Positions 49,896 to 52,069 of a stretch of 53,703 nucleotides of DNA are shown here, piece by piece. Both the position numbers and the translations under genes were made by a program. The stretch comes from a virus (lineage: Duplodnaviria > Heunggongvirae > Uroviricota > Caudoviricetes): IMG/VR virus record IMGVR_UViG_2526164595_000015, positions 1 to 53,703 of that record, one strand, 5' to 3'. The notes beneath the pieces were generated by a model, which was not told the DNA's origin, did not search any database, and was given only the letters and a program-made list of their open reading frames with translations. The first letter of the stretch is position 1. Every line of letters starts with the position of its first letter.

Positions 49896-50449
49896 TATGG
49901 ATTTCGACACAATCATGGAAAAGGCTTACGAAGAATACTTCGAAGGCCTTGCCGAAGGCGAAGAAGCTCTCAGCTTCAGTGAGTTTAAACAGGCACTCAG
50001 AATAAGAATGTGCTCTCACAATGACGCGGAGCACAAATATGAGAAGCAAAATCAGACCGCAGAAAATTTTGTTCTGGAACCCGGAGAAACGCTTTTCAAA
50101 ATTCCCGTTACGTGCCCCATTTGCGGTTTTACATCAGAAGAACTTGACGACTCCTGTAATAATCAGGAAACAACCAAGTATGTCGAAGATGATACCGAGT
50201 GCGCACGAAGAACGATTATATCCACGAGTCCAAACTCCAGGACCAATAAATCTCACTTTGAGAGGGTGATTAATCCACTCCCCCAAACCAATAAAAAAGA
50301 TGCCGGAGGACAAAAAAACCAATGGAACAACGGGATATCTGTCAAAAAAAGACGTTCCATTAAAGACAAACAACGCAGCGCCAACAACTGTAAGCGCTTT
50401 ATACCAGTAATCAATTTTCATGTTCTTAAGCGGATTTATTGGTGGTTGC
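49888..50449 (+). CDS. YdfB/YdfC-like ORF, 3' end running into the IS2 insertion
   Basis: ORF MSDMDFDTIMEKAYEEYFEG… continues into IS2 left end (track ORF ends 50499 inside IS2); probably truncated. Confidence 0.45.
50134..50421 (-). CDS. candidate 95-aa membrane protein antisense to the ydfB/C-like ORF
   Basis: Three hydrophobic segments; start 29 bp from IS2 left end; may be an artefact of the T-rich strand. Confidence 0.25.
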   Translation of the reverse strand: MKIDYWYKALTVVGAALFVFNGTSFFDRYPVVPLVFLSSGIFFIGLGEWINHPLKVRFIGPGVWTRGYNRSSCALGIIFDILGCFLIITGVVKFF

Positions 50450-50540
50450 TAGACTGGCCCCCTGAATCTCCAGACAACCAGTATCACTTAAATAAGTGAT
50501 AGTCTTAATACTAGTTTTTAGACTAGTCATTGGAGAACAG

Positions 50541-50906
50541 ATGATTGATGTCTTAGGGCCGGAGAAACGCAGACGGCGTACCACACAGGAAAAGATCGCA
50601 ATTGTTCAGCAGAGCTTTGAACCGGGGATGACGGTCTCTCTCGTTGCCCGGCAACATGGTGTAGCAGCCAGCCAGTTATTTCTCTGGCGTAAGCAATACC
50701 AGGAAGGAAGTCTTACCGCTGTCGCCGCCGGAGAACAGGTTGTTCCTGCCTCTGAACTTGTTGCCGCCATGAAGCAGATTAAAGAACTCCAGCGCCTGCT
50801 CGGCAAGAAAACGATGGAAAATGAACTCCTCAAAGAAGCCGTTGAATATGGACGGGCAAAAAAGTGGATAGCGCACGCGCCCTTATTGCCCGGGGATGGG
50901 GAGTAA
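50541..50906 (+). CDS. insC: IS2 OrfA (InsC)
   Basis: 121 aa from [18 protein letters not shown]…, matches IS2 InsC from memory. Confidence 0.9.
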
Positions 50907-51769
50907 GCTTAGTCAGCCGTTGTCTCCGGGTGTCGCGTGCGCAGTTGCACGTCATTCTCAGACGAACCGATGACTGGATGGATAGCCGCCGCAGTCGTCA
51001 CACTGATGATACGGATGTGCTTCTCCGTATACACCATGTTATCGGAGAGCTGCCCACGTATGGTTATCGTCGGGTATGGGCGCTGCTTCGCAGACAGGCA
51101 GAACTTGATGGTATGCCTGCGATCAATGCCAAACGTGTTTACCGGATCATGCGCCAGAATGCGCTGTTGCTTGAGCGAAAACCTGCTGTACCGCCATCGA
51201 AACGGGCACATACAGGCAGAGTGGCCGTGAAAGAAAGCAATCAGCGATGGTGCTCTGACGGGTTCGAGTTCTGCTGTGATAACGGAGAGAGACTGCGTGT
51301 CACGTTCGCGCTGGACTGCTGTGATCGTGAGGCACTGCACTGGGCGGTGACTACCGGCGGCTTCAACAGTGAAACAGTACAGGACGTCATGCTGGGAGCG
51401 GTGGAACGCCGCTTCGGCAACGATCTTCCGTCGTCTCCAGTGGAGTGGCTGACGGATAATGGTTCATGCTACCGGGCTAATGAAACACGCCAGTTCGCCC
51501 GGATGTTGGGACTTGAACCGAAGAACACGGCGGTGCGGAGTCCGGAGAGTAACGGAATAGCAGAGAGCTTCGTGAAAACGATAAAGCGTGACTACATCAG
51601 TATCATGCCCAAACCAGACGGGTTAACGGCAGCAAAGAACCTTGCAGAGGCGTTCGAGCATTATAACGAATGGCATCCGCATAGTGCGCTGGGTTATCGC
51701 TCGCCACGGGAATATCTGCGGCAGCGGGCTTGTAATGGGTTAAGTGATAACAGATGTCTGGAAATATAG
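50864..51769 (+). CDS. insD: IS2 OrfB transposase (InsD), DDE domain
   Basis: 301 aa, overlaps insC in -1 frame as in IS2. Confidence 0.9.
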
Positions 51770-52069
51770 GGGCAAATCCAGTTGCGACATTGCTTAATGA
51801 ATCCTTAAAACTGTGGTGATTTTAAGGATACCACCTCGCCTGACGTGGTTAAAAGCAGGCACACAACACGAAAGCGCACGGCGAAGTTCGTCTCACTGTA
51901 CGGTGTCGTTAAATTTAATTCGACCGTGCGCTTCCGGTTGTGGCAACCCGCAAAATGGCGCGGCGGTAAGTATGGCGGGGTTATTCCTTCCCCGTTGAGG
52001 ACACCGAGTTGTCAGGTTGACCATACGCTTAAGTGACAACCCCGCTGCAACGCCCTCTGTTATCAATTT

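Follow-up and report, generated by a model that had tools for sequence, protein, structure and literature searches.

In E. coli, DicF and DicB act on cell division, on metabolism and on resistance to phage. In K-12 both are made only from dicBp, the promoter upstream of ydfA, and the operon has no internal promoter (PMC10448788). The insertion sequence IS2 has imperfect inverted repeats, an IRL of 42 bp and an IRR of 41 bp (PMC3299598), and is the classical polar element with Rho-dependent terminators, known from galEP3 (gal3), in which a copy of IS2 lies between a promoter and its genes (PMC3737525). It has also been described as a source of fusion promoters; in the ampC::IS2 case (Jaurin and Normark 1983, cited in PMC9330008) its IRR end, which bears an outward -35, points towards the genes downstream. 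The locus described here has an IS2 copy between the promoter and the genes of a dicBF operon, with its IRR end facing dicF.

The window is a 53,703-nt stretch of viral DNA (IMG/VR record IMGVR_UViG_2526164595_000015), and its right-hand part resembles the dicBF region of the K-12 Qin prophage. It shares with Qin a DicA-type repressor gene, ydfA, the first 34 codons of ydfB, dicF, dicB and ydfD. The DicA-like HTH repressor gene (49164..49571, + strand; PF01381 HTH_3, E-value 1.5e-14) is annotated as an HTH protein in strain 15A. It is followed by a palindrome, TTGTTAGATCAATCTAACAA (49607-49626), and then by a candidate dicBp, TTGCCT-17-TAAATT (49634..49662, + strand), which matches at only 8 of 12 hexamer positions and which we tentatively identify with dicBp by its position upstream of ydfA (PMC10448788). 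Downstream of it, all on the + strand, are ydfA (DUF1391; 49740..49895; PF07151, E-value 5e-28), the dicF sRNA gene (52068/52069..52120; Rfam RF00039, 72.5 bits against a gathering score of 48, E-value 4e-15), dicB (52295..52483; PF05358, E-value 1.9e-40) and ydfD (DUF1482; 52480..52671; PF07358, E-value 2.2e-25). Relative to K-12, dicF has two changes, C to U at nt 4 (52071) and C to G at nt 53 (52120). Similarity to K-12 stops at about codon 34 of ydfB and resumes about 190 bp before dicF, a conserved stretch that in K-12 contains the RNase III site at -137; between these points a different module of ~560 bp, carrying a reverse-oriented 106-aa gene, replaces the 3' end of ydfB and ydfC. Another difference from Qin is that the window prophage is almost complete in length and has exonuclease, xis and int genes downstream.

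Within this module we found a complete IS2 (IS3 family) at 50450-51780 on the + strand, the single copy in the window. All 1331 columns of its 1331 bp aligned end to end with the IS2A element of K-12 MG1655, with 0 indels and an identity of 1324/1331 (99.5%), which bears out the sequence-only reading that the element is complete. The seven substitutions fall at IS2 positions 32, 190, 268, 312, 535, 606 and 900. One of these, A32G, is the only change in the IRL (50450..50491, + strand, 42 bp), and the IRR (51740..51780, + strand, 41 bp) is identical to that of IS2A; A32G aside, the termini are those of IS2, the IRL starting 5'-TAGACTGG and the IRR ending ...AAATCCA-3'. The A32G variant of the IRL is also present in the IS2 of isolate GPEC1209. 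As in IS2A, insC and insD are accompanied by the A6G site: insC (orfA; 50541..50906, + strand, 121 aa; PF01527 HTH_Tnp_1, E-value 1.6e-19) overlaps an intact AAAAAAG (50858..50864, + strand), the site of the programmed -1 frameshift (PMC3299598), and insD (orfB; 50864..51769, + strand) encodes a 301-aa DDE integrase core (PF00665 rve, 1.5e-18; PF13683 rve_3). Both frames are open and co-directional with the dicBF operon. The ORFs and ends of the copy are intact. It is flanked, again like IS2A, by a 5-bp duplication, here GTTGC (left copy 50445..50449, right copy 51781..51785), and apart from the seven substitutions it differs from IS2A in occupying a new insertion site.

To reconstruct the empty site we deleted the IS2 together with one copy of GTTGC and searched for the result among 5426 complete E. 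coli genomes. The empty site was contiguous in 792 of these at 99.5-99.6% identity, with GTTGC present once, so the element arrived by simple insertion and GTTGC is, as had been claimed, a genuine target-site duplication and not a chance repeat. The isolated phage HannyBb has the same site without the IS. The left IS2 junction, by comparison, was found in only one of the 5426 genomes, that of E. coli O111:H21 strain 15A (NZ_CP077477.1), which is 99.976% identical to the window across 49.2 kb and in which the IS2 copy is already annotated. The best explanation of this distribution is an event confined to a single E. coli O111:H21 lineage and amounting to strain-specific decay. The host element is likewise best explained as a lambdoid prophage of Qin-like and HannyBb-like type, integrated in ydfJ and already defective, its terminase gene containing a satellite element and its ydaT a stop codon.

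The insertion had been described as truncating a ydfB/C-like reading frame. A + strand ORF of 203 aa (49888..50499) does end inside the IRL, as that description implied, but neither full-length ydfB nor full-length ydfC is present at the locus in the comparison with K-12, and the PGAP annotation retains only the 34-codon ydfB remnant as a partial pseudogene. The ORF consists of ydfB codons 1-34 fused to a frame antisense to the 106-aa gene, and its dN/dS is 0.6-0.8, as against 0.12-0.18 for the opposite frame. We therefore rejected it as a real gene on its substitution pattern and dN/dS; its match to phrog_35040 exists only because phage annotators called it. Most of the frame behaves as a non-coding shadow ORF.

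The opposite strand, by contrast, carries a gene under purifying selection (the dN/dS of 0.12-0.18 above), with variable columns distributed 59/38/81 over the three codon positions. In the IS-less allele it is a single 106-aa ORF on the minus strand that spans the target site (L003:2642-2962). A 95-aa hydrophobic ORF starting 29 bp from the end of the IS had been noted on this strand, and there is indeed an ATG at that distance (50421), yet it is the internal Met12 of the longer gene, and in some homologues this residue is replaced by Leu. The conserved N-terminus, M-x-QPPINPLKN, has its ATG on the far side of the IS2. Since the true start codon lies beyond the insertion site, the IS2 does not lie 29 bp in front of the gene but within it, following codon 3, and leaves a 5' fragment (ATG TCG CAA C; 51781..51790, minus strand) and a 3' fragment of 311 nt including the stop (50134..50444, minus strand). 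Homologues of 106-108 aa with 47-88% identity and a conserved N-terminus occur in Escherichia sp., Yersinia and metagenomes, and the Scandinavium homologue, for which the gene call is 141 aa, conserves the N-terminus too; in all, relatives of the protein form 381 clusters. Their genes keep the same place, with the repressor gene on one side and the early-left genes on the other, and are always reverse-oriented. The product is predicted to be a conserved three-helix membrane protein. Pfam, NCBIfam, PHROGs and PADLOC each gave 0 matches to a named family, whether for the protein itself or for its distant relatives, and a Foldseek search of BFVD with an AlphaFold model (pLDDT 66) found no significant viral-structure match (best E-value 0.14).

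Upstream of the start codon, on the minus strand, lies a candidate promoter for this gene, TTAACC-16-TATCCT with an upstream TG (51825..51852), whose function we infer from a block conserved in the Yersinia, Scandinavium and metagenome homologues, GTGCCTG-N14-CAGGC-N3-GTGGTATCCT. It is followed by a leader hairpin (51801..51829, minus strand) that pairs the Shine-Dalgarno sequence (AAGGA) of the gene; the IS-less leader folds at -18.9 kcal/mol (z -3.2), and the corresponding stem in homologues has changed bases. The IS2 parts the promoter, the leader hairpin, the start codon and the first three codons from the other 103; the candidate promoter would now fire into the IRR end of the element, and the gene is presumably knocked out. 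In principle the internal Met12 could still yield a 95-aa product, if there were outward transcription from the IRL, and one weak candidate promoter directed that way, TTAAGA-17-GATACT (8 of 12 positions), lies inside the IS2.

The sequence-only reading had also placed the element between the dicA-proximal promoter and dicF, dicB and ydfD, and the 1.3-kb element is located exactly there, its IRR end 288 bp from dicF. As DicF and DicB are made from dicBp only in K-12 (PMC10448788), the IS2 sits in the sole transcription path; its position together with the published K-12 data places it on the route from dicBp to dicF, dicB, ydfD and the exonuclease, xis and int genes. By analogy with galEP3, the IS2 may exert strong polarity here. 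With most ribosomes halting at the insC stop, ~860 nt of insD would be thinly translated, and dicBp transcripts could be terminated by Rho within that stretch; with DicF and DicB having no promoter of their own (PMC10448788), no DicF, DicB, YdfD, exonuclease, Xis or Int would then be made after induction, which would disarm the division inhibitors and lock the prophage in the chromosome. Such a full block of read-through, one of the two outcomes proposed earlier, is plausible yet finds no support in the sequence, and we consider it unlikely. No intrinsic terminator was found in the sense strand of the IS2 or at its right end (z -0.93), and rut-like C-rich windows numbered 0/209 on the transcribed (sense) strand against 46/209 on the opposite one; the proxy used, 78-nt windows with C/G >= 1.5, is a crude ratio, and we let it do no more than make a full block less credible. 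With rut-like windows on the opposite strand only, the known IS2 terminators probably act in the other orientation. The galEP3 copy shares the placement between promoter and genes, and the literature searched does not settle its orientation, whereas in the window it is the transposase sense strand, devoid of rut-like windows, that is transcribed. With neither a terminator nor a rut-like tract on the transcribed strand, and with no outward promoter at the end facing dicF (see below), attenuation is the probable result rather than a clean block: induced expression of dicF, dicB and the downstream genes would probably be attenuated, not abolished, the likely causes being the extra 1.3 kb and the poorly translated insD. 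As long as the lysogen is repressed, the insertion probably has little effect.

The other proposed outcome was that an IS-borne outward promoter drives the division-inhibitor genes. A fusion promoter at the IRR, or read-through from the transposase promoter PIRL, would feed dicF and dicB without regard to DicA and give low constitutive DicF and DicB. The IRR does hold the outward -35 that serves the minicircle junction promoter (PMC3299598), which from the published Pjunc geometry we infer to be TGGAAA (51759-51764; PMC3299598), fusion promoters formed by IS2 are on record for ampC, acrEF and neo (PMC9330008, PMC3299598), and the orientation of the copy sends PIRL transcripts towards dicF with no terminator found after insD. 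No -10-like hexamer, however, lies 17 (+/-1) bp from this -35: the hexamers 16, 17 and 18 bp beyond it are GTTGCG, TTGCGA and TGCGAC, none of them TATAAT-like, so that while the locus shares with ampC::IS2, as that case is cited, an IRR end facing downstream genes, it differs in that the -35/-10 fusion has not formed. Standard and relaxed scans (the latter accepting 8/12 positions or an extended -10) were empty on the plus strand of 51700-51900, where no pair reached 8/12 positions, and we rejected the idea that the end facing dicF supplies an outward or fusion promoter. The right-end 150 bp of IS2 was picked for a published reporter study because its promoter activity was undetectable (PMC12095673), and PIRL is described as weak and repressed by OrfA (PMC3299598). 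Constitutive expression from the IS2 thus seems very improbable to us.

This copy is not the only IS2 in such a region. We found that Qin-type prophages have at least four other IS2 sites in their early-left region: one lies before dicB in GPEC1209/1210/1035 (in GPEC1209, 41 bp upstream of dicB with the duplication GGCAC), one after ydfD in two pig isolates, one in ydfD of K-12 HMS174, and one in ydfE of MG1655 (IS2E). The MG1655 IS2E and GPEC1209 copies share with the window copy the element, the operon and the orientation relative to the operon; their target sites differ, and only the window copy precedes dicF and splits the reverse-strand gene. The five copies seen are all in the sense orientation, and we rejected this as an orientation bias, as the search could not rank antisense copies: the BLAST queries were IS2 fused to a flank in the sense orientation, only collinear pieces were joined, and the outcome is biased and gives no rate. 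Recurrent insertions could be taken to mean that the insertion was selected, with loss of the membrane-protein gene or a damping of toxic dicBF benefiting the host, and shortened forms of the 106-aa protein are frequent among database sequences. The recurrence comes from the biased search just described, however, prophage regions gather IS elements neutrally, and the presence of the insertion in 1/5426 genomes against 792 with the intact site shows no sign of spread; we give adaptive inactivation very little credence. We also hold it to be very doubtful that sense-oriented IS2 copies rewire the early-left operons of Qin-type prophages, with the window copy at the same time a natural knockout of the 106-aa protein. 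On that view, transcription running on from the transposase promoter would supply a low level of DicF, and some DicB, independently of DicA, induced expression would be damped, and such copies would not be neutral scars. The 106-aa protein, widespread in prophages, has its gene reversed beside the repressor gene and behind a conserved promoter and leader cassette, a place typical of superinfection-exclusion and abortive-infection genes.

The reading we prefer is that an intact IS2 entered the early-left (dicBF) operon by the normal copy-out/paste-in route, which would have produced the 5-bp duplication, and that the insertion is best read as a further step of neutral decay. Taken as one whole, an IS2 jump with loss of the 106-aa gene, attenuated dicBF and neutral decay is in our judgment the probable explanation of the locus.

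The insertion itself carries little weight, IS2 being among the best-studied insertion sequences and the event belonging to a single lineage. Strain 15A is nonetheless a natural mutant in which to ask whether DicF and DicB stay inducible past 1.3 kb of sense-oriented IS2. The locus also exposes a systematic annotation error, in which the 106-aa gene is either missed altogether or passed over in favour of its antisense shadow ORF; such misannotation is seen in PGAP genomes and in phages HannyBb and mEp390. The gene so overlooked, predicted to encode a membrane protein and conserved, is present in many lambdoid prophages, within the immunity region.

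The element between the ydfB remnant and dicF is a complete IS2 (50450-51780; first bases TAGACTGGCCCCCTGAATCTCC, last bases GGGGCAAATCCA) bracketed by two copies of GTTGC (50445-50449 and 51781-51785), as the sequence-only reading had proposed. The alignment to an IS2 reference that it had asked for, run against IS2A of K-12 MG1655, covered 1331/1331 bp with no indels and seven substitutions, one of them A32G in the left inverted repeat. The reading frames of insC (121 aa, HTH_Tnp_1) and insD (301 aa, rve/rve_3) are uninterrupted, the element retains the AAAAAAG frameshift site, and no further IS2 ends were found elsewhere in the window. 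We removed IS2 and one GTTGC in silico and searched this empty site against 5426 complete E. coli genomes, 792 of which matched the rejoined flanks as a single unbroken match (99.5–99.6% identity), indicating that the IS2 is a real, simple insertion; the isolated temperate phage HannyBb also carries the empty site. A left-junction query had a full-length match in one genome only, that of O111:H21 strain 15A (NZ_CP077477.1, 99.976% identical to the window across 49.2 kb), in which the PGAP annotation already labels the element IS2, so the insertion is a lineage-specific event. Both the insertion sequence and its behaviour here, confined to one lineage, are already known.

A Qin-like lambdoid prophage inserted in ydfJ, the site that Qin occupies in K-12, makes up the window. 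A DicA-like HTH repressor gene (49164-49571, plus strand) precedes a candidate promoter and its operator-like palindrome (49607-49662, plus strand), after which come ydfA (DUF1391) and codons 1-34 only of ydfB, both on the plus strand, and a ~560-bp module carrying IS2; dicF (RF00039, 72.5 bits), dicB, ydfD, a 2.5-kb exonuclease gene, xis and int follow on the plus strand. When aligned with K-12 Qin, the IS-less allele was near-identical through ydfA to about codon 34 of ydfB and, after an unrelated stretch, became near-identical once more ~190 bp before dicF; the K-12 ydfB 3' end and ydfC are missing from this prophage type, making "ydfB/C-like" a misnomer for the frame here. Even apart from IS2 this prophage is defective. 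Its large terminase gene is divided into two fragments (~23550-24670 and ~34400-35390) by a P4-like satellite (~25000-34200) that carries a tyrosine integrase, an Icd-like division inhibitor, a RepA-family helicase and a capsid-protease fusion, leaving the prophage unable to package on its own, and the YdaT-family gene adjoining a cro-like gene (48351-48872, minus strand) has an internal stop (48765-48767) that divides it into ORFs of 34 and 137 aa and is flagged by PGAP as a pseudogene in strain 15A. We also observed hokD and rem (~44290-44910). In K-12 the Rem antirepressor lifts repression by DicA, so this prophage still encodes the natural inducer of the operon that IS2 interrupts.

The IS-less module holds two long overlapping ORFs, a 205-aa plus-strand frame continuing ydfB and a 106-aa minus-strand frame with N-terminus MSQPPINPLKNMKIDYWYKAL (L003:2642-2962 in the IS-less allele). 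IS2 splits the latter into two fragments (50134-50444 and 51781-51790, minus strand), with the GTTGC target in codons 2-4. Homologues of the 106-aa protein (106–108 aa, 47–88% identity) were found in Escherichia sp., Yersinia enterocolitica and metagenomes, along with a Scandinavium homologue (65% identity) called as 141 aa with an N-terminal extension. Since the homologues keep an N-terminal M-x-QP..N.L.N motif and two of them have Leu in place of the internal Met12, the upstream ATG is the start. Across five loci, variable columns at codon positions 1/2/3 of the 106-aa frame numbered 59/38/81; pairwise dN/dS was 0.12–0.18 versus 0.6–0.8 in the antisense frame, and amino-acid identity 51–67% versus 33–48%. 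The antisense frame lacks stops in all five, a usual property of shadow ORFs. When 1.84 billion representative proteins were searched with a profile of the family, 381 clusters passed E ≤ 1e-3 and 143 of these passed E ≤ 1e-10; most are 100–115 aa with full-length matches. Together, codon-position variation, dN/dS, the stop-free antisense frame and the profile matches show that the minus strand is the coding one at this locus. The claim that IS2 truncates a ydfB/C-like gene is not supported, ydfC being absent and the plus-strand frame mostly a shadow ORF; the 95-aa opposite-strand ORF does exist, as the truncated body of the 106-aa gene and not as a whole gene.

An AlphaFold model of the 106-aa protein (pLDDT 66) has three long helices and a short hairpin, and invariant residues of the family include DYWYKAL and NHP; no match was found in Pfam, NCBIfam, PHROG, PADLOC or viral structures. 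At all of the distant loci examined, as here, the gene is flanked by the prophage repressor gene on one side and the early-left genes on the other and is oriented against the latter. PGAP omits it in IS-less genomes, and in phages HannyBb and mEp390 it is the antisense shadow ORF that was annotated. From the gene body IS2 severs the first ten nucleotides, a leader hairpin predicted to pair the Shine-Dalgarno, and a candidate extended -10 promoter. This upstream cassette (~45 bp, GTGCCTG-N14-CAGGC-N3-GTGGTATCCT, plus the Shine-Dalgarno-pairing hairpin) is conserved across E. coli, Yersinia and Scandinavium (51797-51860, minus strand; elsewhere L012:4080-4161, L008:124-205, L014:5027-5108 and L002:3340-3400). 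The cassette is better conserved among these than the gene behind it, and GPEC1209 has it in front of an unrelated 66-aa gene, a pattern that would suit a site at which cargo genes are swapped.

The only source of DicF and DicB in K-12 is a polycistronic transcript that starts at dicBp, upstream of ydfA, and is then processed; the operon has no internal promoter, and an RNase III site is located 137 nt upstream of DicF (PMC10448788). The K-12 processing region is kept here, downstream of IS2, so IS2 sits in the only transcription path; its placement between the dicA-proximal promoter and dicF/dicB/ydfD, as originally noted, is borne out by position and by these K-12 data. The alternative that an IS-borne outward promoter drives dicF/dicB was rejected. 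The IS2 minicircle promoter has its -35 in the right inverted repeat and requires a spacer of exactly 17 bp (PMC3299598); that geometry places an outward -35 at TGGAAA (51759-51764), but GTTGCG, TTGCGA and TGCGAC, the hexamers at spacings of 16, 17 and 18 bp, do not resemble a -10, a relaxed scan of 51700-51900 gave no plus-strand pair resembling a promoter, and the right-end 150 bp of IS2 was used in a reporter study for its lack of detectable promoter activity (PMC12095673). Transcription from the transposase promoter, which is weak and repressed by OrfA, may still read through. Rho-dependent terminators lie within IS2 in a galEP3 reporter (PMC3737525). The dicBF operon transcribes the transposase sense strand, which carries no intrinsic terminator and on which 0/209 78-nt windows had C/G ≥ 1.5, versus 46/209 antisense, a strong asymmetry in rut-like (C-rich, G-poor) windows suggesting that classical Rho-dependent polarity would depend on orientation. 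We infer with moderate confidence that downstream dicF/dicB transcription is attenuated, not abolished. DicF itself has C to U at nt 4 (52071) relative to K-12, FHI_NMBU_03 and GPEC1209, and C to G at nt 53 (52120) relative to K-12, the latter shared with FHI_NMBU_03 and GPEC1209; xylR and pykA mRNAs pair with the DicF 5' end (PMC5069750).

In other strains, IS2 has entered the early-left/dicBF operon of Qin-type prophages at no fewer than four further sites: 41 bp ahead of the dicB ATG in three chicken isolates (L002:3800-5135 in GPEC1209, duplication GGCAC), downstream of ydfD but before the exonuclease gene in two pig isolates (L019:~2890-4220 in HCP5S3_I2), in ydfD of K-12 HMS174 (L020:~2740-4070), and as the IS2E remnant in ydfE of MG1655 (L005:4344-5049). 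All copies found are in sense orientation, which may be an artefact of a search design that would miss antisense copies and is not taken as a sign of orientation bias or of selection. The original observation is confirmed and its interpretation partly supported, and by-products of following it up are a corrected gene model at the target site and a widespread, unannotated family of small membrane proteins adjoining prophage repressor genes.
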